A stretch of DNA of 63,998 nt, filler included, from Porpidia crustulata (taxonomy: Eukaryota): the NCBI GenBank assembly GCA_964255105.1. It is 6 parts of 6 records of this genome, joined end to end, with 100 filler letters (N's around TTAATTAATTAA, not from the genome) between each part and the next. Parts side by side here need not be neighbours in the genome. Positions count along the whole stretch, not along the records: positions 53,829 to 63,998 come from CAXUWE010000820.1; 5 more parts are not named here. One strand, given 5' to 3'. Below the pieces are notes generated by a model. That model was not told the origin of the DNA. It did not search any database and saw only the letters and a list, made by a program, of their open reading frames with translations. Positions within the stretch are counted from its first letter, which is position 1, and the number at the start of each line of letters is the position of its first letter. Below are positions 10,672 to 63,998 of the stretch, in pieces. Position numbers and translations under genes: made by a program.

Positions 10672-10771
10672 NNNNNNNNNNNNNNNNNNNNNNNNNNNNN
10701 NNNNNNNNNNNNNNNTTAATTAATTAANNNNNNNNNNNNNNNNNNNNNNNNNNNNNNNNNNNNNNNNNNNN
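10672..10771. other. Artificial contig linker N44-TTAATTAATTAA-N44
   Basis: Six-frame stop spacer flanked by Ns. Confidence 0.99.
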
Positions 10772-21438: not shown

Positions 21439-21538
21439 NNNNNNNNNNNNNNNNNNNNNNNNNNNNNNNNNNNNNNNNNNNNTTAATTAATTAANNNNNN
21501 NNNNNNNNNNNNNNNNNNNNNNNNNNNNNNNNNNNNNN
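21439..21538. other. Artificial contig linker
   Basis: N44-TTAATTAATTAA-N44. Confidence 0.99.
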
Positions 21539-28718: not shown

Positions 28719-29667
28719 TGATGAAAAAGTAAGAGTGTACAAAACGAAAATGTTGGAAATTTCGAGGCAGGAGGAAAGAAGGCTTCGAGTCGCACCTGGT
28801 AAGGATGTCGCAGGATAATTTCGAGAAGTATCGTTTGGCGGTGTCACAGAAACGTGTGGAAAAGGTCATTTTCACATTTGCCAGGTGTTTTGAATTTCTT
28901 CTCTTTTCTTTTTCTTTTCACCCTATGCGCTGTTATGATAGATCGTAGCCCCAGTTGCAGAAAATAACAGGATGATCTTACGAGCGTACTTCATGTGTCT
29001 CGATATGGTGTACGATAATTCTAATCGTACGTATCAAGGATGTGTCCGTCTCAACAAGATACCATCTACGCGGCGATTGAAAAAGGAGCAAACCCCCTCC
29101 TGGACAGAAGGGGACCAAGGGTACAGCATTATGCCACGATCTGGCTTCTGACTTCCCCTGTGTCCCACTAGCTGTAAATTCCCATTAAATTGATTTCCCA
29201 GAATTTCCGCGAAAAAGATTCTCCGCGCTCGTACCAGTACCTCTTTGAACAGTGTGAAGCTGAATAAATTTTATGGTGGAGTTTTGAACGTATGATCATT
29301 ACCATTCTTGGGTATGTCGAGCTGAAGACAAGGGTTCTAGCCCTATAATGCCATCGAGTACAAAGTAAGTGGATAGGAAAACGCTACACATTGTGGGGAG
29401 CGCATAGAACATCATTTGTGCGCCTTGACAAGGATGAGATAATCATGCATCTCAAATTCATATGTATGATAATGTCAGGTCGTACAGAAAGACGTGGTAA
29501 GATCTTGCGAGCGCTAGAATTGTTCTGAGGCGCACTTTTGTTTAGTGACGAGTCAATTCCACTCTATGTCTCTCTGTGTCTCTACTGGAATCTTGTTATC
29601 CTCAAATCTATCAACTTCACGAATTTGCATTCTATTCTGAGAGGTCCCAAATCGCGCATTCTTCAAA

Positions 29668-31035
29668 ATGAATCACCCGCCCACATTGGAACAGCTTGGG
29701 CCTTTTGATCCGAATCCCTTTTTGAGATGCTATACAATCATGATGCTTTGCTTCCCGCTCAAGGACCATCACGAAAGGGACGAGTTAATCCAAACCCTCG
29801 AGGCGGGATGTAATAGCCTCACACAAAGCATCCCGTACCTTACAGGCCAAGTCGTACATGATCCAGATCAGCCGGGAGAGCACTATAAAACGGGATTACC
29901 TCGTGTTGTACCTTATGAACACCCAAATGGCTCCATATTAAGGATTAAAGATGTCCCAGATGACTTCCCATCTTATGTTCAAATCAGTGAAGCAAAAGCC
30001 CCCTCGGCCATGCTTGACGGAGCTGTTGTTTCCCCCAAAAAGGGACTTCCGGACCGGCCTCCTGACTCCGAGGATTGCCCTGTGTTGATCGTTCAGGCAA
30101 ACTTCTGCCGTGGCGGTCTCTTGCTCACTTTCGCCGGGATGCACGTTGTCATGGATGGGAACGGCTTAGGACAGCTGATCCGCATGTTTGCATCAGGCTG
30201 CAGGGGAGAACCTCTCCTAGAAGCAGATATCCTTGCAGCTCACCTTGACCGTGGCACATATGTTCCTCCTTTGAAACCGAATGAGACACCAATGAAGCAT
30301 CTGGATCTTCGCAGAGACCCGAATGAGAAGGAGCCTGAGAAACCTAAGGAGATACCTCCTATGCTTTGGACCTACTTCCGCCTTTCAGCACCATCCCTCA
30401 CCAAACTCAAAGCAGAGGCTTCAAAGGACTGTCCACCGAGCTCATGGATAACAACCAACGATGCCATCTCAGCTCTTGTCTGGAAAGCAATCACCAAAGC
30501 CCGCTCCTTGCACCTCGATACTTCCGAAAATTCCACCTTCCTACGTGCAATCGACGTGCGTCGTACCCTCAAACCTCCCGTCCCAGATTCTTTCCTAGGC
30601 AATAACGTCTGGTGTTCCTTCACCCACCTACCAATCAGAGACCTCATCCACAACACCTCTGTGTCCGTCATTACACGCCTGATCCGCAAGGACACGCTCG
30701 CAATTGACGATTTCTTTATTCGCAGCCTGGTAACTTTGCTTCGCAACGAGCCCGATAAGCGGACAATCGGATTCGCAACGAAGCGTCCCGAGAAAGATTT
30801 CATCGTCTCTTCTTGGGCCGATCTGCCTGTTTACCCCGAGGGAGGATTCGGGCCCCAACTCGGGATGCCGGAATTCATGAGGAGGCCGGCTTTGACGCCG
30901 TTGGAAGGTTTGGCGTACTTTATGCCGAAAGATCTGAAGGGGAATATCGATCTGGCGATTGCGCTGAGGGAGAGCGATCTGGAAAAGTTGAGGGATGATG
31001 CGGAATGGATGGGCTACGCAGAGTTCATAGGCTGA
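29668..31035 (+). CDS. Trichothecene 3-O-acetyltransferase-like (TRI101/AYT1-type) CoA-dependent acyltransferase
   Basis: Catalytic HxxxD (HVVMDGNG), PVLIVQANF, SSWAD and GFGPQLGMPEFMRRP motifs; intronless 455 aa. Confidence 0.88.
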   Translation: MNHPPTLEQLGPFDPNPFLRCYTIMMLCFPLKDHHERDELIQTLEAGCNSLTQSIPYLTGQVVHDPDQPGEHYKTGLPRVVPYEHPNGSILRIKDVPDDFPSYVQISEAKAPSAMLDGAVVSPKKGLPDRPPDSEDCPVLIVQANFCRGGLLLTFAGMHVVMDGNGLGQLIRMFASGCRGEPLLEADILAAHLDRGTYVPPLKPNETPMKHLDLRRDPNEKEPEKPKEIPPMLWTYFRLSAPSLTKLKAEASKDCPPSSWITTNDAISALVWKAITKARSLHLDTSENSTFLRAIDVRRTLKPPVPDSFLGNNVWCSFTHLPIRDLIHNTSVSVITRLIRKDTLAIDDFFIRSLVTLLRNEPDKRTIGFATKRPEKDFIVSSWADLPVYPEGGFGPQLGMPEFMRRPALTPLEGLAYFMPKDLKGNIDLAIALRESDLEKLRDDAEWMGYAEFIG

Positions 31036-32204: not shown

Positions 32205-32304
32205 NNNNNNNNNNNNNNNNNNNNNNNNNNNNNNNNNNNNNNNNNNNNTTAATTAATTAANNNNNNNNNNNNNNNNNNNNNNNNNNNNNNNNNNNNNNNN
32301 NNNN
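32205..32304. other. Artificial contig linker
   Basis: N44-TTAATTAATTAA-N44. Confidence 0.99.
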
Positions 32305-32964: not shown

Positions 32965-35680
32965 TCACCTCAACCCATCCCCTCTCTTGATTTGATCATC
33001 CGAGAAACCCTCCCTCGGCGCTTTCAAATACTTCTCAAACTTCCCACTGACCTCAATGACGTGCTTCAAATGGTCATAGCAAAACCTCTTTCCCTTGTAC
33101 TGCGCAAGCTGGCGTGCTGTGGTCATTGCATTGCGAATCTGACGTCCGTTCATGTTCTCATTAGTCAACTCGTCCATATGGTCGATGATGTCCTCAAAGT
33201 CGATATTGTTCTCGTCAAGAGCTTTGAGCCTGCTGAGGAAATTGCGCCATATTTTACGTTGCTGAGAGGCGGTGAAATTCTTGTAGTGAAGGGCAAATTG
33301 GATCCGAGATTTGAAAGCTTCGTCAAACGTGCCGACGCGATTAAAGGTCAGAATGAGGATTCCAACATTATATTCGAGAACGCGCAGGAAAACGGATACA
33401 AGGGCGTTCCGCTCAAGGTCAGCTAAACCGCGCTCCTCCAGGAACACGTTGGCTTCATCAAGAAGTACAACTTCGGAAGTAAGATGATAGGAATTCGTAA
33501 AGCCCATTGAAAACTCACCACAATCCCAGATCCTACCTAGATTGGGGGCAGACTCAAGATACTTCTCGACATCCTCGGCTTTTGTGCCAACATCGCCGCA
33601 AGTTACTCGATAAAGAGGCTTTTCGGCAATCTCTGCCACACCCTCAGCAGTAAATGTTTTGCCGGTCCCAGGGCCTCCATGCAATAGAATAGTCAGACCG
33701 TTACCTTTACCGGCTATCAGATCCGTAGAGTTATCGGCTTTGAGTTGATTCGTTACGAGAGCTTGAACAAGCTCTTTAGTCTTCTCGTCGACAACCAAAC
33801 TTTCGAAGGCATCCTTATTCCAGGTGACATCCAAGATCCTATCTACGTTCAAGTCAACTGTATCAAACAATCAGCGATTGAGACATGGCCTCTGCTTTCA
33901 CCCGACTTACCCCATTTCTTCAGGCGAAGATTGTATCCAATTATCGTAGGTGGGACCAGAAGTACGAAGTCACCTTCCGGTGGCTCATTTCTTGCCATGG
34001 TCTCTTTGTTCAAATCAGCACGAAGGTTACGATTTGCCAAGGTAGAACTAGCGTGAAGGGTCTTGTAAGTATAAATGTCAATCATGTATCGTTCGCCAAT
34101 CTGATCCTGTCAGCTAAGACGAACAACATTCCAGATGGGGACTTGCACTACTAGAGATCCCATGGTCTTCTTCTGGATAAGAGACGAACTTCTTTGCTCT
34201 GCATTTCCAAAACATTCGCCCCCGTTTCTCAAGCGTGGCTCGTAACCCATCGACATCATACTGAAGAGGGAAATAGTCCAAGCTGTTGAGCTTAACCTCT
34301 TCGTCATCTCTTTCGACATTCAATGTAATATCAATAGATTCATCTATTTTCTGAAACGAACCATCAAATGCCCACGACCACACTTCGACCCTCCAAGTAT
34401 GAGAAACTCTTGCGTCCTCAGATACTAGCTTCTCGTCCAATCTGTCAGTGTAATCTCGCTCGGGTTTATGGCGAGTTTTCAGGGCCCAAGAAGTGGCTAT
34501 CCACGCGCGAGGCGGTGTTATTTAAGTCCTTACTAAAACATGGCCAGGTTTTATGAGATATTTCATTAATTTGTTCGAGACCGTACCTCGGTTGGTACAA
34601 ATTTTTGCATCGGGATATTCTTCACAGCGGCTTGCTTGAATACTATTCGTCAATTGGCTTAGCAGGCTCTTTTCGACCGGGGTTAGACCCAGTTGCACAT
34701 TCTCAAGCAATGGCAAGCTGTAATAAAAAAACAAGTACGGAGCTGGTATTTCATCTCCTGGGTCAAACTGTGGAAATACGTTGGGAATCCCTGGAAGCTG
34801 CCTCTGTACCTGTTTTATGGCGGAGATAATGTGCTCAGAAAGCAAAGCTAAAGTTTCTTTGAAAGGTTCAGGATTCCGATAGACGCCATCTTTTGTCATG
34901 ATCAGGCTCATATCAGCCGGCGGCCGGTCATTGTACTCCCTGAAGAAGACAAAAGCCAATTCGGGATGTTGATCCAGATAGAAATCGACGTTCTGAAGCG
35001 GCCGCGCAGAGTGGAGGACGGGTCTTCGTTCGCCTTTCGTCCATTGAGGCGGGTCCAGGAACGTGTCGCCTGCAACGCAATGAAGTGTCCTCCACATATA
35101 CTGTAAGATTGGGGGTGAAGTCAACGTCAAGCTCTGCTCTGCACTAGCAAGACGCAATTGATGATTCTCGCGCTCGAGAGTCTCTAGACATTCCAACAAA
35201 TGATCTAGATCGTTTGGCTTGTGAGATCTGGACGGTTGATGAGGGCTCACAGAGGCGATCTGATGTGCTGGGATGATGCGATAAGGGCTGTCTAGATCAA
35301 CGTCCAAGGCTGGGTGGCCTTGATTGGGAGGGAAAGAACGAGAAGGAGGAGGAGAAGGAGGAATGCGGTTGGGACGAGAGATAGGATCTACTCGGAGATC
35401 TGTATTCTTGCGATAATAACGGCGGTGTCCGCCATTAGGGGAATCTTGTTCGTCGTCGAGACCCTACCACATAGGCTCACGTTCCATTATTGTGACTATT
35501 TCAAGTCTTTTATCTATCCCTCCCTCGCTGGATGAGCCATCTGAACCGCGATGCTGTAATTTCCTTCTCGGCATCTCGACAGCAGATTCTACAAGGCCTT
35601 TCTACGGTACTTTAGCGAGGTATGGAGGAATCCGAAGGCTTGGCATACCAAGCCGCCCTCCGCAATGCGTCCTTGGACAT
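32965..35680 (-). pseudogene. Fungal AAA+ ATPase (long N-terminal extension family), disrupted
   Basis: Walker A HGGPGTGKT, altered Walker B LLDEANVF, DEAFKSRI, MNGRQIRN; in-frame stops at 34522-34524, 35464-35466 and 35602-35604, all in one reading frame. Confidence 0.85.
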
Positions 35681-36383: not shown

Positions 36384-38156
36384 ATGGAGACCCGGCCGGA
36401 GTGGTACCAACAAGATGGCGATGACGGGTATGTCTTCCAGGGAGAGTTCCATGATTGTCGATTGTTGACAGATTCTGGTCACCAGACACCTCGCTCCAGC
36501 GCGCAAAGCCTTCATCAAGGCCGTCGAGATATTCAAAACTAGCATAACCGAAGATACGCGCAAAGTCGCGGTCATTGGGCAGTCAGCATGCATAGAAGAT
36601 GTTCAGGCGATGGTTCTAGAAGCAAAGTCCCATTATAACATTACCCGCCATAATAAGAGCTTAAGCAAATGGCTCTCCAAACTCTCGAGTCGCGTCCAAT
36701 TCTATGGGAATATTATGGATGTTCTAGTGCAGCATCACCCAGAATATGTGGCCCTGGCATGGGGGGCGATGAAATTTCTGTTCGTGGTAAGCGGGATGGA
36801 TGCATATAGTGCGAGCATTGGTAACAAGTCTTAGTTGGTAAACAACCATGAGGCAATGACCAAGTCTCTTGCCAAAGGAATGTGCCAGAGAGCCGATTCA
36901 TTGCCACGAATAGAGCTGGTGACGGTTTTGTATCCGACCCTGAAAATGAAGCAAGCTGTAGCTGAACTCTATGCGCGAATTATAAGGTTCTTTATACGAG
37001 CGGATCAATGGTACAAAGAAAGCAAGCTGCTACATGTCCTTCATTCATTCACCCGGCCTATAGAACTCCGATATACAGATCTGATTGACGAAGTCGAGTC
37101 GTATTCGCGTGTGATTGATAATTTAGCTTCTGCAGGTGCTCAAGCTGAACAGCGAGATATCCATTTAAAGATACAAGATATAGCTAGGAAGCAGAAGGAA
37201 TCAAATGCTGTCATCTGGGAGATGCAACAGTTGATAATCTGTAAGCGATGTACTGAAATGCTAAGATTTGGTATCTGCTAATCTTTCCAGCGTATCAGTC
37301 GATCAATTCCGCTGCTACAATTGACACCAATCAGCGACTCTCTGACATACAAGTATCACAGGTCATGGCCTTCACCTCAGGTACCTGCACGTTGGACCCG
37401 GCGAAAGCTCTGCAATATTGCGCCATGAGGTGCAATCAGCGTCTGGTAAGATCAAAGTCTAAAGCGCAGCCGTTTTGGTTATCATCAAAATTTCAGACGT
37501 GGAAAGATTCCCAGATTTCCGCGTTAGTGGTCTTTAAAGGAAACTATACTAGTCGTTTTGAGGTCAAAGACTTTGGAGTCAATATTATCAAGCTCATGCG
37601 AGACTCCAAGCTGCCAGTCATCTGGATATTGAAGGCCACAGATCAGAATGCTCTAGAAGCGCCTTCTGTGATTGATGTATTAAAGAACCTGACATCTCAA
37701 GCCTTGTGTCTTAACCCAACCTTGCGCAACGAGCGATCCTTCTCCTTGAGCTGTGCGAAATTTCAAACAGCTGAGACTGAGACAGAATGGCTCGATCTTT
37801 TGTTCTCAGTACTTGAAGGAATACCGCTGATATATATCGTCGTTGATGTAGAAGCGGTCGGTCCTTATTACTCGGGTCTGGATTGTAGTTTCGCGTGGCC
37901 ATCTGCCTTCCTCGAAGTGTTCCAGCGGTCAGCTGAACGCCAACTCAAAACGGTCGTTAAAGTTATCTTGATGAGTTATGGCTCAAATGATTCTACGGCC
38001 ATGTCTCAGAAAGGCGTGGAGGATCTTGTCATCCCAGTCACTCGAACCCAGATGAACTCCGCATCAGCAAAACTTCGGATACCCTTCCGATCAAGAGGCG
38101 GCAGGAATGGGAAGTTGACCTATAATCAAGCTCGGCGGCAGAACTTGGCACTTTAA
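36384..38156 (+). CDS. NACHT-associated N-terminal helical domain protein with degenerate NTPase-like fold (fungal NLR-related)
   Basis: YGNIMDVLVQHHPEYVALAWGAMKFLFV, MKQAVAELYARIIRFF, SSKFQTW, PLIYIVVD, VVKVIL motifs; three GT-AG introns; no GxxxxGK. Confidence 0.75.
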
Positions 38157-42968: not shown

Positions 42969-43068
42969 NNNNNNNNNNNNNNNNNNNNNNNNNNNNNNNN
43001 NNNNNNNNNNNNTTAATTAATTAANNNNNNNNNNNNNNNNNNNNNNNNNNNNNNNNNNNNNNNNNNNN
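42969..43068. other. Artificial contig linker
   Basis: N44-TTAATTAATTAA-N44. Confidence 0.99.
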
Positions 43069-53728: not shown

Positions 53729-53828
53729 NNNNNNNNNNNNNNNNNNNNNNNNNNNNNNNNNNNNNNNNNNNNTTAATTAATTAANNNNNNNNNNNNNNNN
53801 NNNNNNNNNNNNNNNNNNNNNNNNNNNN
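53729..53828. other. Artificial contig linker
   Basis: N44-TTAATTAATTAA-N44. Confidence 0.99.
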
Positions 53829-54430
53829 ACCTTCTCCACCCTCACCACAAACTCAGCCGCGAAATACCTTTTCTCCACGTACAGAATTTGCCACAGCCCA
53901 TACAGCGTATCCCTGAGAGCCTCATACGTCAGCCCGTGTCCGCCGCTCACCACAAAAAGCTTGCAGGCGACCGAGAGCCTGATGTAGGGATCCAAAGTGG
54001 TCGGCAAGGGCCCATGAGCATCGTGCTCTATTATGAGAGTTTCGATCTCGGAGAGGGCGTTCCACAGGACGGATGCGAGCGCTGTGTTGAGGAGCGGCAG
54101 GTTGGAGTGGAGGGAAAGGGTGATGGTGGTGGAGGTGTTGGGGATGTGGTAGGTCACGCGCTCGTTGCGGAACGGGAGGCTACTGTTTATGTGGAGGCTG
54201 GGGACGTGGTTTAGAAATGTGGGATTGTTCGTGAGAAGGGGGGTCGGGTGGTTGGAGGCTTGAGGGTACGGCTTACACGGAAACGTTTGCGTGGAAAACA
54301 TGAATAGGAGGATTGACGATGGGAGACGCGGAAGATGCTGTTGCTGGTGGTCCCGCATTCGTAGGACGGAGGTGATGAAGGAGCAGCAAGAACGATGGTA
54401 AGAGCTGCATGATGGGGTTCGGGCCAACAT
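53829..54430 (-). CDS. Hypothetical protein, 3'-truncated by contig edge
   Basis: ~200 open codons (YHIPNTSTTI...LTYEALRDTLYGLWQILY) running into the gap. Confidence 0.6.
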
Positions 54431-55069
54431 TTCAAGATGCTATGGACCTCGGATGGTGCTCTGCCATGGGGTTTGGACTACCACAAGTCGGTGGCTTCTG
54501 GTAAAGGAACATCCCTGCGTGTGGAAATGTGGTTGAGACACGGGTATTTGACGGGAGAATATCAGAGGCGACATGCGCAATGCAACCTTTATAATCTTCC
54601 TCGCTCCTTATCTCAACCCCGCACATATTGACGTGTAGACCTTGGGTCCGAATTGTTTCCGACGGATATTGTATAAAAGCGGGTGAGGTGATGGAGGAAA
54701 TGGCAGAAAATGGGATAGTTAAAGACATGTAGGTATCGCTAACAAAAGATGTAAAAGGCGGGAAATGAAATAGAGAGAGGTCGGGTTGAGCCTCCGTTTC
54801 ATGCACTACCTGTTCAATGACTCGAATCTGTGGGAATATATGAAGCTGGGTTGTATCGTATGAAACTACGGGTAAATCCTGACGTCAATCTTCGCTCAAT
54901 AACATAGCATGTCGCTAAAAGTGACGAGTAAATCTCCTCTCCGCTTATGATCGTTATGTCGCCATGCTAGAAGAATGACATCTTTTTACGCATGTAGAAG
55001 CGTCTATGTGGCTTTTACGATAGCTACTTTTTATGATTTTGTATACACTAATCTGACCGCTGTACTCGC

Positions 55070-56031
55070 CTACTCAATCACGTCCTGAAATGTGCCCGTC
55101 ATGGAATTGCAGAAAGACCCAGGAGGTGCTGATATTTCAGATACTTTCTTGACCTTATCCTCATACACATTTCCATCGGTTGTGGAACAGCACGCCTGCG
55201 AGACATAGGTGCAGTTGCAGGCGCACGGGAACGGGCCCGAAGCATCCGTTAAGGGTGGAGGAGTTGGAGGAGCCGAGCTTGATCCATTGGGTGTGATGGT
55301 ACCATTGGCTTCGGATAAGCACCGTCCGCGCTGGCATTGGGTGTCTAGAGCAGATGAGACCGCGCTTGAAACCGCATTTGCAAACCATGCACAGGTACCA
55401 GGCTGTGATTTGGTTTGGCCCACCGGGGGCTTCGATACTTTGCATACATAATTGTCTCCAGCGCAGTCATTCCAGGATGCGCAAGGAGCACCTGGTGGTT
55501 GCTGCTTGATGGAGTGGCGATGATGGGCAGGTGGAGCAACCACACCATTATTAGGCGTTTGGTAATTAATCGCGACATTTGGATGCAATGCGGTATCCTC
55601 GATGGGAATCATGTTCTCCTGATTGTTGAAGCAATAACACCATTCGGTTTTGCATTGCTGAGCATAGAAGTAGAGAGGTGAGCCAAATGGCCAACAAGTC
55701 ACATGGTCAGACATTCCACAAGCACACCCTGCAGCCTCACATAGTTTTGTGAGCTGTTGCGCTGGCGGATAAGAGGTGATTCTTGATCTGATTGTTGCAG
55801 GGTTGACCCCTAAGTCTGAAAGACCGGGCGGTAAATTGCCATGACAAGTCAGTATCTGATACTATTAGTACGTATACGTAGAGATATTTGAGACCACAGG
55901 CCTACAAAATCGCGCTTAACTAACGATAGCTCTGGCATAGGTGATACATTGACTGGGGAGCCCAAAGTTAACTTCACAAGGTAAATGACGGATAAAAGCC
56001 AGGTAGGAGATAGAGATGGTAGAAATAGCAT
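55070..56031 (-). CDS. Secreted cysteine-rich protein (20 Cys)
   Basis: Signal peptide plus Kex2-like LVKR; intron 55905-55856 joins KRDF|ILTCHG in frame with ORF 55714-55070; CACNCTYVSQACC motif. Confidence 0.8.
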
Positions 56032-57036
56032 GCTTCATAGATCAGTATCGAAAGTAAATGCTTTGCTGAATAGGCGGATGCGGAGAAATATGTGTGGGAA
56101 GGGGAAATATAAGTATTGCAGCGCCGACGAGCAAAACGCACGATGTGCCCTTGTATTCCGCCTCGATGTGGAGTCTCCCATGTTTGCCGCGATAGGGAAG
56201 TTTGGCGTTAAGCGTAGTAGAAGACCTAGATGTTGATCAACCAATCATAGTAAGGATTTATATGTCAAAGCGCTAGAACATAGCAGGAAACAGGCATAAG
56301 GCGATGTAAGGCACCAGGAAGGGAGAGATAGGAGTTGCAAACCACCAAGACTCGTTTATCAATGAAACGATGGATTCACGACGGAGGTTGAGCAAGCCCT
56401 CGGACAATATGCGACAAGCGATCACCGATGCATTCAGAAATAGCCCGCGAATCAGCCTCAAGTGGGCATTGATGATCGATCTTAGTGCCACCAAGAGCAA
56501 ATATGCCGTGACGAGTCGAATTGCTTGAATCGCAAGCTCTGGCAGAAGGCAACCTTCAGTCAGGCTGCTTGGTACACGCCGACCGCTACGACCAACCAAA
56601 GGTCATCGTATGATGGTCAACGGTATGACTTGCAGTGAGGCAGCAGCGTACTTATCGAGTCTGTTTTGTGTCACATGTTTGGGCGCATTTTGACAGCGAT
56701 TCAATCTTGGTCAACTGAAAACGACAGGATAAATGGGGCCAAGGGTCGCTCAAGTCAAAGATTTTCTGGGAGCACAAAAATCCCGACTAAGTTCTCTTGC
56801 GACTATCGCGAAAGATTGAGATCGTCAAAACCAAGGAAAGGTATTCTGCTCCGTGAGTAGTGGGCAAGAATCAGCGCACATGGACGTCGTTATGTGCCCT
56901 ATCTGGGCACTTGGGGTCTGTGATGATAGGGCGAGAGGGAATTTTCTGATCTGCACGAAAGTGTTTATTACAACATTAAATACAATAGTGGTCTCAATAG
57001 CGTAACGGAGGTTGGATCATCCCGGTATCATACTCT

Positions 57037-57442
57037 TTTTTTTGTTATGTCAGGTTTATTGTCCTTATGCAAGCTAGGCTTATGAAAGACACACGACTAG
57101 TTACATTAAACACGCTTAATTGTGGGACGATTTTCTCGTAGGCCGAATTCTCGCTTAGCAAGTTCTCGAGACATAGCATCACTGCCGATACTGAGTTTCA
57201 CAGTTCCCTCCACCCTTACTAATTCTTAAGGAAAATGTATAAAACCCTAAGAACCCCGATATTTCCACAGCAGCTTAGTATAGCTAGCAGAAGCCTCCTT
57301 CTTGGCAGCACCGTGTGACAGAGGTGGGATTCGAACCCACGAGCTTCGCGTTTCTCTAGCGGGGGCCGCCCTCCCCTAGCGCCTAGAGTATTAACTAGCC
57401 CTTCCAGAATGATGCACTACCAACTGCACCACTCCCCCGTCT
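57037..57442 (-). mobile_element. tRNA-derived SINE-like retroposon with 13-bp TSD
   Basis: GGTATCATACTCT at 57024-57036 and 57443-57455; tRNA head at 5' end; AATAAA plus A8 tail at 3' end. Confidence 0.85.
57316..57441 (-). ncRNA. tRNA-like head (pseudo-tRNA) with A box, B box and 50-nt intron-like insert
   Basis: A box TGGTGCAGTTGG 57431-57420; T arm GTGGG-TTCGAAT-CCCAC; nominal anticodon GGA; mismatched anticodon stem. Confidence 0.8.
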
Positions 57443-57711
57443 GGTATCATACTCTAAAGTGCAGGAGCGTGAGGAGTTCGTCATACTCTACAGCCTGCCC
57501 TATTCGTACGGAACAAGCTAGGCAGGTGTCTGCTTCCGTCATCCTCCAACTTGGTCAGGTATTCTATTTTCATTCTTTAGATTCCTATTCCCTATTCGGA
57601 CAGTCGTTATCTTTACTTCCAGCCCATTGCTAGGTACCTCTTGCCTCCCTCACATCAATTGTACCTTTACTGGGCGTTAAGGTAGCGGGGCACCCGCGGT
57701 GAAGTCTTAAA

Positions 57712-59355
57712 ATGGTGCTCGACAATGATACTAGAGGATGGATCATGTCCTGCGTAAGCGGCATAGGTAAGCTTTGAATCGATGTATTGGTAGGGTCTAG
57801 ATCCTAATTGCCTTCTAGCTTGTGTGGTGGGCTCGAGTATCATCTGCGTGGACCTCATCATACGGCGTATCCCCGGGAAACGCAACTTCAGAATCCAAGA
57901 TAGCAATGTGTTTCTGTCGTCTTCGCTCAGTCTAAGTTTTGGTGTCATGGTAAGGCCAGATGCCACAAGGTATGAAGCCTACTAATTGGTTCTGGTGGGT
58001 AGCTGTTCTCGTCACTATACAGCATTCTACCCTCGGCGAAAGACTATCTCACCAAGAGCGGCTTCTCTTCCCAAACAGCTGCTTACATTACCACTGGATG
58101 TTTCATTGGTGGTGTAATAGGCATCCAAGCTATTTCACGCCTATTACATCACTATATACCTTCCCACGTGGTTGACTGCGATCACACTCATGACGAGCAA
58201 GACGGAGACAACAGCGATGAGCATTCGCACGAGCATTATAATGGTCACTCGCATCAGCGACACGAATCATTCTCAGAAGATACGCCTTTGCTCTCTAGAG
58301 AATATCCTGATTTGAAGCCAAGCCTTGGACAACGGTCGAGATCCGAAACAGTTGAGACTGCTCCTTCCTTGATTCGAAGACCAACCCTGAAAACCCGTCT
58401 GACAGCTCAGGTATCGACTCTTGTGTCGGGCGCCAAATCAGCTTGTGATGAGGGTGGGCCTTGTTATGGTTACAGTGATCCATGCGGGCAGGAATGCCTG
58501 AAAGCGATTAGTCGGAGCCCGACAAGGATATCAGGCAGGCAGGCATTCCCTGCACCACCACGGCAAAAGTCGCTTCTCCGTACTTCGACCGTGCCATATC
58601 CTCGCGCTGCTCAGCGTCCTCTTGAAGGCCTAGGCGAGGAACCCTCCCCGCTTGATCAAGATACCATCGATTCTAGAAGGCCTAGTAATCGAATACCAGG
58701 GGCTTCAAAGGCTATGCCTCGTGGCAGAGAAGCTGCCCCCATACATTCCCATTTCCAGCCTAGATCTGAATATTCTCACGATAACCTTGAGAGTGGCCGG
58801 AAACGCGGATTCTCTTCTGAATCAGATGGCGGTCCCCCAAATGAACCCGCGCAAGCCCACCACCATCATGTCCCTACTAACGCCTTTCTGTCGATTGGAC
58901 TCCAAACATCCATTGCGATTGCTTTGCATAAATTACCAGAGGGCTTCATAACCTATGCCACAAATCATGCCAACCCATCATTGGGCTTCACTGTGTTCGT
59001 AGCACTCTTTATCCACAACATCACCGAAGGTTTCGCCATGGCCCTTCCGCTCTACCTTGCAATAGGCAGCAGGTGGAAAGCGATGTTCTGGAGTTCGCTA
59101 CTAGGGGGCGTCAGCCAACCGCTAGGCGCTGGTGCCGCGGCCTTGTGGTTCAGGCTCGCTGGAAAGGGCGACATGACTCCTGGGGAAACCGTCTATGGTT
59201 GCATGTTTGCGATCACGGCAGGTATCATGGCTAGCGTTGCGTTGCAGTTATTCTCCGAGAGCTTGGGCCTGACGCACAACCGCAATATATGTATTACTTT
59301 TGCCTTTATTGGGATGGGGGTTCTGAGCTTGAGTTTTGCGTTGACTGCGGGCTGA
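57712..59355 (+). CDS. ZIP-family zinc transporter (Zrt3-like)
   Basis: SLSFGVM|LFSSLY, His-rich loops, IALHKLPEG and FIHNITEG signatures; two introns. Confidence 0.93.
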
Positions 59356-59850
59356 GCGAGTGGTGTCGGGATTCACGTTGCATCGACTATAGATACCCTT
59401 TAGACCCTTACGAATCTCGTTTCTCGACTCTACGGCGCGCCATGGGTTGGTTCGGCTCTCCAACCGGACCATTCGTCAAATCCGGGCGTTTTGGGGCCTG
59501 TATTTTGTAAAATATACCATAAGCGCACTATAGAAGATTGATAGATTGATAATGAGAACTCAATCAGACCCCGTCGACGCTACTGACGACGTACCCAAAC
59601 TTCCTAGATAGTATCAAAAGCAGATTATATCTGGTGCATGAAACCCCGTTTATATAGCTTTCATCCTCACTCATCATGACCATGCAAGGCCGACAACACG
59701 TAAAGCGACTTATCGACCCAGTCAACACGATTTTCTGGCGATGTTGTACGTACTTTAATCCATCGACCTGTCGCCACACCGTTATCGACACCTCCGGACA
59801 CCTCCGGCCACCACCGCCACAACAACCACCCACACATCCATAGCCTGCCC

Positions 59851-60042
59851 ATGGAAGAGTACTTGATCAACTCGTGCGTGGCCATCTTCTACTGCTGCCA
59901 GTGCGGTTACCCGACCGCCGTCTTCCTCGGGGACGATCTCGCCCTGGGTTGTGGGTTTTGCCCTCACACCCATAATTCGAGCTGCCCCGGGTGCAGCTGG
60001 TACGTCTTCGTGGAGCTGCCGCCGGCCCCAGCACCAATGTGA
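59851..60042 (+). CDS. Small Cys-rich putative zinc-ribbon protein (63 aa)
   Basis: YCCQCG...CGFCPH...CPGC; strongly GC3-biased codons. Confidence 0.55.
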   Translation: MEEYLINSCVAIFYCCQCGYPTAVFLGDDLALGCGFCPHTHNSSCPGCSWYVFVELPPAPAPM

Positions 60043-61594
60043 GCCGGTCTGCTGGAGTCGCGCAGTCGATGGGCTGATGGTGGATACAGTGGGGAGGCCA
60101 GTGGCGGTTCAGGAGCAGCTGCTGGAGGGTCGGGAGATCGTTGACCTCAGAGAGGTGAGGTATGGTTTTTCTTTTGTGTTTTTTTGAGATTATGGTAGAG
60201 TGATGTGGGTGTTCTGTTTGTGAGTATGTGTGGATATAAGCACACAGTTCGAAGTGATGAAGACGTGAACTCATGGATCGAATAGAGATCTCATGAAATT
60301 CTGCGATGGGATTCTCCTTCTCGTCATCTCGTCATCATGAACCTAGCTTTCTTTGATATGGACGTTTTGCTCGTTATCGTCTCATTCCGTGATCATTGTG
60401 GGTAAGATCAATCGCTGAGTCTTCTCATTTCCCCTCGTTGTCCTGTTAGCTCAGGGGTTCATTCTTCCTGATGCCTGTTCCAATATTACTGGTTGAGGGT
60501 CATGGTACTTATTATCATTCAGACCAGCCTTCAAGCTTGTCGTAGCTGGCAGTCGTGCAACCCGTCGTTCTTCTTGATGATCCAATCAATGTTTGTGTCA
60601 ACCTTGTTAGTCACTTTTCATTCAGTCCCACTACATAATAACGATAGGATCCATAGCTTTTGATCGTCTCTATCAGCTAATGGATCTGGCTTTCCTATTT
60701 TCTACATTGTTCCACAAAGTTTTAGTCTACACTTCTGCAGAAGTTTGTTTTAAATACATTTTCTTGAGTTCTTTGAGTAGCCTGCGATATCTTTCAGTCA
60801 AGTCTCGCCCCGATTCTTTTGTAGATTTCCATGGTTTGGCGCGACCGCAGACGTGGTCGGCTTGTGTCTCATGGTGAGACGTCTTCTTGTGGAGAAATAT
60901 TCTCAGACATGCACCAACACTACTTGTGCATGTCAGGTTTCATAAGTGTCACGGCTGTTGCTAGCTCTACAGGCTCAATGTTTTCATGGGATAATGTACG
61001 AGTAGACGTTGGAATGTTGATATCGGATTAATAGTCGGGCCGGCCAGCACAAGCCCCGAAAGCAGTCCCTAGCGTTGGACTATTTGGACTACTGCGACTA
61101 ACGATTCTTTACATGCGCAGTGCGATCGTTGGCGTCCTCCTTCCCCACCAGGAGGAGCTCTCGAAGCTTCACCAAAGCTGACCTGCGTCTGTCCTTCATC
61201 CACCAACTCGTATCTCTTTTTCTCCGTGCCATTGTCTGTACTGTCTTTCTTATTTCTCTGATTTTGGCTGTTCTCAGACTGACGTGCTTTGACCAAAGTA
61301 GGTAGACCACACGGTTGTTCGCAAGGGTTTCCGCTCCCGCACAAGCTTTCCAATCAGCGCTTTAGACTGACTGAGGACAGTCTTGCCAAGTGCATCTGGG
61401 ACGAGTACAAGCATAATTGAAGATACTCAACCACGATATCCTACTGCCGAGAAGTAACAGACCGCTTGACATCCGCATAACCTCATATCGTCGCTATTGC
61501 CGTTCAGCAGATCACCCCTACCATTCTGTACTCAAAGTCGCCATCCCTGTTCCCCCGTTAAATCCGCCGTCACAAAAGCCTCCCCAAAGTTCTC

Positions 61595-63160
61595 ATGCCG
61601 ACATTAGGGCTTTGGAAGAAGAAGAGGACCAAGGACTCGGGCCACAAGGACCCAAACTCCCCGTCTTCGCCAATTGGCAATTCTCCAATTACACCTACGA
61701 CGACTGGCGGGTTCCAAGAATCGCTTGCGTCCACATCTTCCCACACTTTGTCATCGCAATCCCAAAATAGTTCCTCAAAGGGCGCACAACGACCACCGTC
61801 GTCAGGGGTACCTCACCAGCAACCCGCGTCATCCACACTTCGCAGCCCTGGCCATGATCCGCTAGTAAATACTTCACAGCAAGACGCGCCAAAGACAACC
61901 AACGCGATCAGCTCACCCCAAAACGAAGAGCCTTCGAATATGGAGAATTCAGGCATTGGATTGGGAGTGGCAGCAAACCCGGACGCAAGGATCACAAACA
62001 CTCAACCGCGCACCACGAAAGGCAAGTATTCGCTGACAGACTTTGCATTGCAGCGGACACTGGGCACTGGGAGCTTCGGGAGAGTCCATCTGGTTCAATC
62101 TAAGCATAACCAACGCTTCTATGCGATAAAGGTATTGAAAAAGGCGCAAGTGGTCAGAATGAAGCAGGTGGAGCATACGAATGACGAGCGGCGAATGCTG
62201 CAGAAGGTCAAGCACGCTTTTCTAGTCACATTGTGGGGAACTTTTCAAGATTCTAAAAACTTATATATGGTCATGGATTTCATCGAGGGTGGAGAGCTAT
62301 TCAGTCTTTTACGAAAGTCGCAGGTCAGTGGCATTGGATTTCATGATTGTTACTATCAATTTTACACCATCTTTGAGTACAAGGACTCACTAGAGACATA
62401 GCGTTTCCCGAACCCAGTTGCCAAATTCTATGCGGCAGAGGTCACACTGGCGCTTGACTACTTGCACTCGATGCACATTATTTACCGAGATCTTAAGCCC
62501 GAGAACCTTTTACTGGACAGACACGGTCATTTGAAGATCACGGATTTCGGGTTTGCCAAAGAGGTACCGGACATTACATGGACGCTCTGTGGCACGCCAG
62601 ATTATCTAGCACCTGAAGTGGTGAATTCCAAAGGCTACAACAAGTCAGTAGACTGGTAAGTGCATCAAACGTGCCATTTCCTCGAAATCAGGTTCATTGT
62701 GGACTAGGTGGTCACTTGGCATCCTGATCTTTGAGATGCTCTGCGGCTTCACCCCGTTCTGGGACGGCGGCTCTCCCATGAAGATCTACGAGAATATCCT
62801 CAAGGGGCGTGTAAGGTACCCACCTTATATTCACCCCGACGCTCAAGATCTACTTCAACGGCTCATAACGCCGGATCTAACAAAGCGATTGGGAAATCTT
62901 CACGGAGGATCCAAAGATGTCATGCAACATGCGTGGTTCACAGAAGTTACATGGGAAAGATTGGCGAGAAAAGACATTGACGCGCCCTACGTACCTCCAG
63001 TACAAGGAGGTATTGGGGATGCCAGTCAGTTCGACAATTACCCAGAAGAAACAGAAGCGTATGGTGAACGAGGACCAGATCCGTAAGTAATTTTACGACA
63101 TTTTGCGCAATCGTCTACTCATTATGCAACAGACATGGACACCATTTCCGCGACTTCTGA
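61595..63160 (+). CDS. pkaA: cAMP-dependent protein kinase catalytic subunit
   Basis: [37 protein letters not shown]-terminal FRDF*; three introns. Confidence 0.96.
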
Positions 63161-63747
63161 GCAGTATTTTGGCAGCTCTTTCCGCCAAAGCTTTAATGTT
63201 CACTGACAATGAATGATGATGAAGATGAAAGGATTGGACAAAAAAGCCGGCTAAGGAGTGAGCTGTGGGTGGTGGACAACAGCACCGATGCAATTTCTCC
63301 CTCCAGCGTATTACCCAAGATGTAATTACCTTGATGGCGCGCGTCTTTTTCTCAATCGATGCCGTCGCATCCGCAAGACCCTAAACGCTCTTCGTCTCAC
63401 TTTTCGAATTGATACTCTCGAATATGCGCATGCTTTATCTAAGGTATCAATTACACTCCAGCAATGTACTTGAAGCAACTCGTGAAAATCGAATGATGCA
63501 GCAATCCAACCGTGGACCAAAGTTTACATGTTTTGCATCAAGGTGCTATCAGTGAATCTGCTGTGGGAAGAAACGCCAGCGCCTACTTATTGAAGTGATC
63601 TTATGCATTTCCCCGGCGATTTTTCGTCGCGACAATTTGTAGCCGTTCTAATCATGTTCTAGTTATTCAACGCTTCAAAACGCTGGAGCGATTCGCTATA
63701 CAATTCCGTGCTCAGGGTATCATTGAAATTCATCCGCTTCATCGCAC

Positions 63748-63998
63748 TCATCTTGAATGGCTCCCCTTGCTTTCAGACCACATCCTATCGACGACTTGGA
63801 ACACAGCGGTAATCGCCTTCATCGTCCCCTCATCAATCTCCACCCCTCCTGCCCGCTGTAACATCTTGTCTGGATGCCACCTCACTCGATCCTTTTTCAG
63901 CGTATCGCCCAAATTCTCAGGTGCGTTTCGAAAGAATCTCTCAACCTCCTCCTTTGCGACATCCTCCCACCTCCCACTTTCTACCGGCCATGGAATCC
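63748..63998 (-). CDS. 3' end of an NFKBIL1-like / J-domain-like HPD protein
   Basis: IPWPVESG...LKKDRVRWHPDKMLQR...ITAVFQVVDRMW...* open from the window edge. Confidence 0.7.
   Translation of the reverse strand, partial: IPWPVESGRWEDVAKEEVERFFRNAPENLGDTLKKDRVRWHPDKMLQRAGGVEIDEGTMKAITAVFQVVDRMWSESKGSHSR

Follow-up and report, generated by a model that had tools for sequence, protein, structure and literature searches.

The insertion upstream of the ZIP gene

The stretch of DNA analysed here (the window) comprises 63,998 nt of Porpidia crustulata, made up of parts of six records joined with filler, and is gene-dense, otherwise ordinary fungal DNA. Its last part (53,829-63,998), derived from CAXUWE010000820.1, carries on the plus strand a ZIP zinc/iron transporter gene, with exon 1 at 57712-57765 (translation MVLDNDTRGWIMSCVSGI) and the main exon at 58003-59355 (Pfam Zip, 6e-20). 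Upstream of this gene and antisense to it lies an insert of 406 bp (57037-57442, minus strand), which consists of a leader, a head resembling a transfer RNA (tRNA), a body and a tail and is bounded by a 13-bp duplication, the end of which (57455) is separated from the ZIP start codon by 256 bp. The insert is very probably a member of a family, low in copy number, of tRNA-derived short interspersed elements (SINEs), that is, of non-autonomous retroposons of the kind without long terminal repeats (LTRs), in a lichen-forming ascomycete.

Read on the minus strand, the insert begins with AGAC followed by GGGGGAGTGGTGCAGTTGGTAGTGC...GTGGGTTCGAATCCCACCTCTGTCA, continues through a body of about 254 bp and terminates in ...AATAAACCTGACATAAC and an A-run. 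The perfect 13-mer GGTATCATACTCT is present at 57443-57455, on the 5' side of the element in its sense orientation, and again at 57024-57036, on the 3' side, where base 57036 is assignable to the A-tail as well. The window contains exactly two matches to this 13-mer, and no further one when a mismatch is tolerated; in shuffled sequences the matches averaged 0.06, and only 1 of 100 shuffles had two or more. It is the sole perfect direct repeat of at least 11 nt within 56000-58500, a region in which three other direct-repeat families are 92% alike. At the target site itself there is also a near-repeat, TCATACTCTAAAG at 57447-57459 and TCATACTCTACAG at 57481-57493, 34 bp apart, which is probably due to chance.

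The A-tail (57036-57043, minus strand) contains 7-8 A residues; the eighth A of the run is the first base of the 13-mer, and the border can therefore be read either as A7 with a 13-bp duplication or as A8 with a 12-bp duplication. An AATAAA hexamer (57055-57060, minus strand; sense position 383), located 11 nt ahead of the A-run, may represent a poly(A) signal. The insert has no terminal inverted repeats (perfect length 0), and the longest T-run on its sense strand is 4, at sense positions 199 and 208.

The body (57061-57314, minus strand) has a GC content of 0.44 and contains stops in all six frames. Over the entire element, the longest open stretch in the six frames is 65 amino acids, for which a search of 5.8 billion proteins returned two candidates, neither of which scored. 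The element is non-autonomous and has no coding capacity. A stop-to-stop frame of 104 amino acids (57319-57633, plus strand) runs antisense from the head out into the flank, and automatic annotation would be likely to call it, wrongly, a gene.

The tRNA-like head

The head (57315-57438, minus strand) resembles an 81-nt cloverleaf of tRNA-Ser(GGA) with an additional 43 nt, as found with the Rfam tRNA model and with ARAGORN when introns were allowed (-i). The Rfam model RF00005 aligned over its full length (1-71) with 57316-57438 of the minus strand, at 27.5 bits and an E-value of 0.0036, with the anticodon region replaced by 63 nt; at gathering thresholds, no Rfam match was found in the whole window. 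The coordinates given by ARAGORN -i are c[57315,57438] for the tRNA-Ser(GGA)-like cloverleaf and i(38,43) for the insertion, and the program made no other call on either strand of the 64 kb. When the 160-nt head region was shuffled with its dinucleotide content preserved, 0 of 300 sequences gave a call. The inserted 43 nt are GC-rich (57359-57401, minus strand) and occupy the canonical intron site of tRNAs (37/38). Ahead of tRNA-like position 1, as set by the ARAGORN call, is the 4-nt leader AGAC (57439-57442, minus strand), which may correspond to the start region for RNA polymerase III (Pol III).

The two putative promoter boxes were located by pattern matching, with the A box TGGTGCAGTTGG (57420-57431, minus strand) falling in the D-arm of the Rfam and ARAGORN alignments and the B box GGTTCGAATCC (57327-57337, minus strand) in the T-arm of the Rfam alignment. 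The latter agrees at all ten fixed positions with the B box consensus GGTTCGANTCC. The boxes are 82 nt apart, a greater spacing than in an ordinary tRNA. Minimum free energy folding of the head gave a four-way junction in which the middle arm is long. Two stems of the drawn cloverleaf are imperfect, the acceptor stem with two G.T pairs besides a G.G mismatch and the anticodon stem with an A.A mismatch; the head has neither a score above the curated threshold nor the intact acceptor and anticodon stems of a functional tRNA-Ser gene. Judged from these features it is tRNA-like and no credible working tRNA.

A preliminary description of this DNA had proposed a perfect 13-bp duplication at 57024-57036 and 57443-57455 around a minus-strand insert of about 406 bp with a tRNA-like head, a non-coding body of about 260 bp and internal T-runs only 4 long, and all of these features were recovered in our analysis. 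Two of its details had to be modified. The head is tRNA-like as described, but, with 43 nt inserted at the intron site, it is not a plain tRNA copy, and the tail, described as A8 set directly against the duplication, is indeed an A-tail but not a clean A8, its last A being shared with the 13-mer.

Dispersed copies in sequencing run X1

Contigs of four public sequencing runs (X1 to X4) were aligned on 55000-59500, and the contig pieces and loose ends described below are those listed among the alignments. Run X1 contained 0.90 of the sampled words of the element. In this run, contigs of the unique flanks had depths of 7.77, 12.3 and 9.18, versus 161 (57042-57095), 181.5 (57066-57377) and 122.9 (57348-57441) for contigs inside the element, the second of which, 312 nt long, had zero differences from the window. 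The excess, approximately 10- to 23-fold, extends across the entire unit including the body and tail, beyond the tRNA part. A copy number of about 10-20 would correspond to it, a figure that we treat as rough because depth is not equivalent to copy number and because the window may itself derive from the sample of X1.

The ends of the repeated unit coincide with those of the insert. The X1 flank contigs stop at 57065 and begin at 57414, each 29 nt inward of the border, and such an overlap at both borders is what would be expected of a k-mer graph branching exactly at the repeat ends. Five of the six listed loose ends are at the borders (before 57036, 57038 and 57041; behind 57441 and 57443), and their flanks are all different. 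Since the X1 copies begin to match at 57036, 57038 or 57041, the length of the tail differs among copies. A second X1 copy, flanked by ...GATTTGTTGCAGCCTG before 57038 and by TTGCAGCCTGTCG... behind 57443, has its own 11-bp duplication, GTTGCAGCCTG, on both sides (counted with G57443) and a tail of six A. In addition, a 32-nt X1 contig (57412-57443) has a depth of 18.5, twice that of the flanks, which fits two copies sharing G57443.

No further copy of the element was found within the window, where BLASTN gave chance matches of 12-19 nt only. A metagenome scan with a strict head pattern gave no match, and one with a relaxed A-box/B-box pattern gave 90 stretches, in which BLASTN with the element found six matches of 22-30 nt, located in the T-arm, and none of the stretches was related; both patterns had been checked as matching the window.

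Copies in related fungi and age of the insertion

Two of the runs represent related fungi, namely organism B (X2) and organism C (X3), and X4 represents organism D. In B and C, we found pieces of the element that were 87-93% alike and were situated on contigs other than that of the ZIP ortholog. In X4, two short pieces matched the ZIP gene and none the element. The family is common to at least three related lichen fungi.

Two copies in B could be described with their borders. In X2 contig 13, the head (57294-57432) is joined to the tail at 57072 and below (aligned 57050-57072). The duplication of this copy, TCAG[AG]CTACTTGTAG, is about 14 bp with one 2-nt indel, and its flanks are TCAGAGCTACTTGTAG and TCAGCTACTTGTAG, the left one being assigned to this contig because both flanks share that sequence. 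Its tail, in the sense direction, reads ...CCTGA TATTA (CTA)3 in place of poly-A. In X2 contig 10 (12.7 kb), 57036-57203 is joined to CTTTCTCCCCGTCT, which is similar to the 5' terminus of the element, and this contig can be read as an internally deleted copy with a duplication of 9-11 bp and flanks G[G/A]ATGATTTGA; it is single-copy in B, since its depth of 19.7 is close to that of the ZIP-ortholog contig (20.3). Counting the window copy and the second X1 copy as well, there are four insertions from two species, and the duplication, 9-14 bp long, is different at each.

The 43-nt insertion is kept in these relatives. Its length is unchanged in X3 contig 15, the sole listed gap of X2 contig 13 (57313) is outside it, and the three between-species head differences that are listed (57393, 57399 and 57401) all fall within it. 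The tail-to-head jumps to 57294, from 57072 in X2 and from 57091 in X3, skip about 57073/57092-57293 and suggest that a short form lacking the central 200-220 bp exists in B and C beside the 406-bp long form, the sequence between the joints being marked as not known.

The element heads of B and C (57294-57441) were 89-93% identical to the window (11 differences in 139, 102 and 148 nt) and the element tails of B about 87-89%. Over the ZIP coding sequence (57816-59357), identity was 80-85% (150 differences in 769 nt, 79 in 525 and 63 in 403), and thus the head is more alike across the window, B and C than the ZIP gene is. This could reflect selection on master copies of the family, or a spread of the element after the species had split.

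The dispersed copies with the same ends and different duplications that the preliminary description had anticipated are borne out by the depth of X1 (122.9-181.5 compared with 7.8-12.3), by its different flanks and by the 11-bp duplication, as are other duplications elsewhere, in the two copies of B (about 14 bp and 9-11 bp). It had further anticipated an empty site in a relative. The 9.2-kb ZIP-ortholog contig of B, which has short upstream matches (55160-55227 and two 21-nt blocks), passes from 56425 to 57816 at a joint with no aligned element and falls short of the window by 769 bp over the span 55227-57816. An orthologous contig spanning the locus was thus found, but the suggestion of an empty site in organism B is a weak one because the anchors are short. 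Finally, a fairly recent insertion, also proposed there, is indicated by the perfect duplication together with a difference of one base (57399) between the window copy and the collapsed high-depth contig of X1.

Nature of the element and its proposed mobilisation

On this evidence the SINE copy is genuine, young and low-copy. Its anatomy, the repetition of the 406-bp unit with fixed ends and differing duplications, its occurrence in three related fungi and its near-identity to the majority of the family were observed; transcription by Pol III, the identity of a partner long interspersed element (LINE) and any effect on the ZIP gene are what we infer. With 406 bp and several flanks in X1, the element is a short, non-tandem interspersed repeat of less than 700 bp, with tails (A7-8, shorter A-runs and (CTA)3) and duplications (9-14 bp) of variable length. 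For a tRNA-derived head, SINEBase asks that 60 nt or more match a tRNA species with an identity of at least 60%, and it regards A and B boxes as an indication and no proof (PMC3531059). In length, arrangement and modular structure, and with a head that is putatively tRNA-derived, the element agrees with the structural definition of SINEBase apart from the working threshold of 100 copies.

Several points nevertheless weigh against assigning the insert to a SINE family. The depth ratio of about 10-23, itself rough, does not reach the 100 copies of SINEBase, although repeat-poor genomes are allowed to fall short of that number (PMC3531059). Contig depth based on k-mers and obtained from one run, possibly of the very sample behind the window, is a poor measure of copy number, and a further 26 loose ends and 35 pieces lie beyond those listed. 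The sixth of the listed X1 loose ends is internal, behind 57377, and may mark a truncated or rearranged copy. The Rfam score of 27.5 bits is below the gathering cut-off of 29, ARAGORN with default settings found no tRNA anywhere in the window, and the folding energies were unconvincing against those of shuffled sequences (z = -1.64 for the head and -1.26 for the whole element). In addition, a longer A-tail would be expected of a young insertion, and none of the 64 open reading frames of at least 130 amino acids in the window contained a Pfam family of reverse transcriptases or endonucleases, meaning that no LINE was found there.

If the insert is a SINE, Pol III, steered by the internal A and B boxes, would begin transcription a few bases ahead of the tRNA-like head and would read through a body without a T-run longer than 4. 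The LINE-like 3' region of the RNA (...AATAAACCTGACATAAC and the A-run) would then be captured by the reverse transcriptase/endonuclease of an autonomous LINE, which would nick the target, prime the complementary DNA on the tail and leave a duplication of 9-14 bp. Target-primed reverse transcription of this kind would produce variable duplications and variable tails, products that were observed here, and the enzyme is presumed from them. Duplications of 9-14 bp fit LINE-mediated insertion, given that inserts driven by the LINE MGL in Magnaporthe have duplications of 10-20 bp (PMC2104539) and AfuSINE2 families of Aspergillus fumigatus have 4-14 bp (PMC5063351). A LINE of the Tad1 clade might be the likeliest partner, a hint taken from the MGL duplications, from the LINE/Tad1 content of Xanthoria, where these elements are among the families dominating the genome repeats (PMC13486527), and from AfuSINE2-1a, which has its 3' region in common with Tad1-clade LINEs and ends in an ACT repeat (PMC5063351), a repeat echoed by the (CTA)3 tail of one copy in organism B.

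Among other explanations, the one that survives best, improbable as we consider it, is a retroposon transcribed by RNA polymerase II, such as a retrocopy of a polyadenylated non-coding RNA or a 5'-truncated LINE end, in which the tRNA-like head would be incidental and AATAAA a true poly(A) signal. The hexamer is suitably spaced from the A-run, and the LINE machinery of Magnaporthe copies unrelated cellular RNAs (the WEIRD chimeras; PMC2104539). However, the 5' end lies 4 nt before tRNA-like position 1, and the X1 loose ends at 57441 and 57443 agree with it within 1-2 nt, a shared end that is not consistent with variable truncation. Moreover, the A and B boxes are intact despite the disrupted anticodon region, conservation between species is highest in the head (89-93%), and the sense strand has no T-run of 5 or more.

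It is still less probable that the insert belongs to a dispersed family of tRNA-Ser genes or pseudogenes, containing an intron and a conserved flank, with the 13-bp repeat arising by chance or locally. ARAGORN does call an intron-bearing tRNA-Ser(GGA), and tRNA genes are multi-copy by nature. On the other hand, high depth spans all 406 bp with the body and tail included (161-181.5), the unit terminates in an A-run abutting a perfect duplication, and other copies have duplications of their own. Mispairing affects both the acceptor stem (G.G, besides two G.T pairs) and the anticodon stem (A.A), the Rfam score is under the gathering cut-off, and GGA is not known as a usual anticodon for serine in eukaryotes. 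A tRNA-Ser gene family is largely refuted by the depth, by the tail and duplications and by the stem mismatches.

Least probable of all is a non-autonomous element of the LTR type or solo LTR with tRNA-like sequence, of the Helenus/Ajax kind, or a miniature inverted-repeat transposable element, since the insert has no terminal inverted repeats, its termini (AGAC... and ...A7-8) are unlike TG...CA, its tail length differs among copies, and its duplications vary from 9 to 14 bp, whereas LTR integrases leave fixed duplications of 4-6 bp and DNA transposons fixed short ones. Non-autonomous LTR elements derived from small-RNA genes are known, however (PMC10886601).

Comparison with known SINEs

The SINE kind is well known, and the present family resembles several described ones. 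The Mg-SINE of Magnaporthe is a tRNA-derived element of 472 bp with about 100 copies, and its partner LINE is MGL. Its head folds as a cloverleaf (PMC5063351), and its mobilisation is attributed to a 3' end that imitates that of a LINE (PMC2104539). Compared by description only, the two are alike in being ascomycete SINEs of similar length with a cloverleaf head, the duplications being 9-14 bp here, and they differ in host (Lecanoromycetes-like versus Sordariomycetes), in copy number, which is about 10-20 here, and in the 43 nt inserted here at the intron site. The present family also differs from AfuSINE2, again by description, in that its head folds, its B box agrees with the consensus at all ten fixed positions and the window copy has a poly-A tail. 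The AfuSINE2 families are tRNA-related, 140-493 bp long and low in copy number, and occur at gene-rich sites; their heads are described as having no cloverleaf fold and degenerate A and B boxes (PMC5063351). The (CTA)3 tail of the organism B copy, by contrast, is like the end of AfuSINE2-1a, being the same ACT repeat in another register.

Further SINE-like elements listed for filamentous ascomycetes are Foxy, Nrs1, EGH24/Eg-R1 and SINE2-1_BG (PMC5063351), to which, going by that listing, the present family is similar as a short non-autonomous retroposon. Nrs1 has 11 copies, and AfuSINE is likewise low-copy (PMC5063351). Relative to the SINEs of SINEBase (Vassetzky and Kramerov 2013), the element shares a length of less than 700 bp, a non-tandem arrangement, the head-body-tail structure and a tRNA-like head with a putative internal Pol III promoter, but differs in having about 10-20 rather than at least 100 copies.

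The oddest feature of the family is its insertion of 43 nt at the tRNA intron site, which, on the alignments, is kept in all three species. It is conceivable, and in our estimate somewhat doubtful, that the ancestor of the head was a tRNA-Ser gene with an intron and that this intron was retained, in which case the SINE RNA, resembling an unspliced pre-tRNA, might escape or exploit the tRNA splicing machinery. This idea is based on the position of the insertion, exactly at the 37/38 splice site, and on its retention in copies of three species. In the literature searched, we found no described precedent for an intron-retaining tRNA SINE and no link of intron-containing tRNAs with SINEs.

Fungal SINEs are thinly documented, with about ten cases, including one oomycete set, reported in the account of AfuSINE (PMC5063351), and the curated set described in the SINEBase paper includes none from fungi (PMC3531059). 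In the available text of the Xanthoria genome study, SINE occurs only as a category in a figure legend (PMC13486527), and that of the Solorina crocea genome study gives SINEs as absent. The searched texts of genome papers on lichen fungi contained no characterised SINE family, the term being used solely as a RepeatMasker category or with the remark 'absent', and in other listed papers on transposable elements of lichens it did not occur at all. Four strings of the element, compared with the texts of papers, gave no relevant match, just one 13-mer in an Arabidopsis paper. On the literature, therefore, the family appears to be undescribed in lichen fungi, and it may be contained in repeat libraries as 'unknown'.

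Host and other features of the window

The ZIP protein places the host. Its named homologs, at 57-64% identity, are from lichen-forming Lecanoromycetes throughout (e.g. Lasallia, Umbilicaria, Schaereria, Mycoblastus and Xylographa), and its closest relatives have 73-80% identity. The N-terminal start of the Lasallia homolog P0011, compared with the translation of exon 1, is MPLGNDTRGWVMTCISGI. Because the named homologs are from Lecanoromycetes only, the host, as far as protein similarity can tell, is a lichen-forming ascomycete with Lecanoromycetes affinity.

On the other side of the SINE, a cysteine-rich open frame of 263 amino acids without a Pfam family (55070-55861, minus strand) could, by its composition, encode a small secreted protein. 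Elsewhere in the window, genes for a TRI-like/BAHD acyltransferase (29641-31032, plus strand), a fungal AAA+ ATPase with lid domain (32968-33870, minus strand) and a DUF7708 protein (36835-37278, plus strand) are clustered and may represent a secondary-metabolite or NLR-like neighbourhood. The window also has ten runs of 44 N, arranged as five pairs about 10.77 kb apart (10672-10771, 21439-21538, 32205-32304, 42969-43068 and 53729-53828), which, because of this regular spacing, have the appearance of a masking or scaffolding artefact rather than of biology.

Implications for lichen-forming fungi

Located 256 bp upstream of the start codon of the ZIP gene, the SINE copy suggests itself as a candidate for influencing in cis a gene relevant to metal handling. 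The family is sharply delimited and seems to be young still, and a consensus of it could be used to annotate repeats that pipelines probably leave 'unclassified', and its insertions offer presence/absence markers for population and species studies of lichen fungi. The insertion at the intron site, a minor curiosity, could inform how SINE RNAs dodge tRNA processing. In addition, the family offers a handle on the LINE that is active in these genomes.

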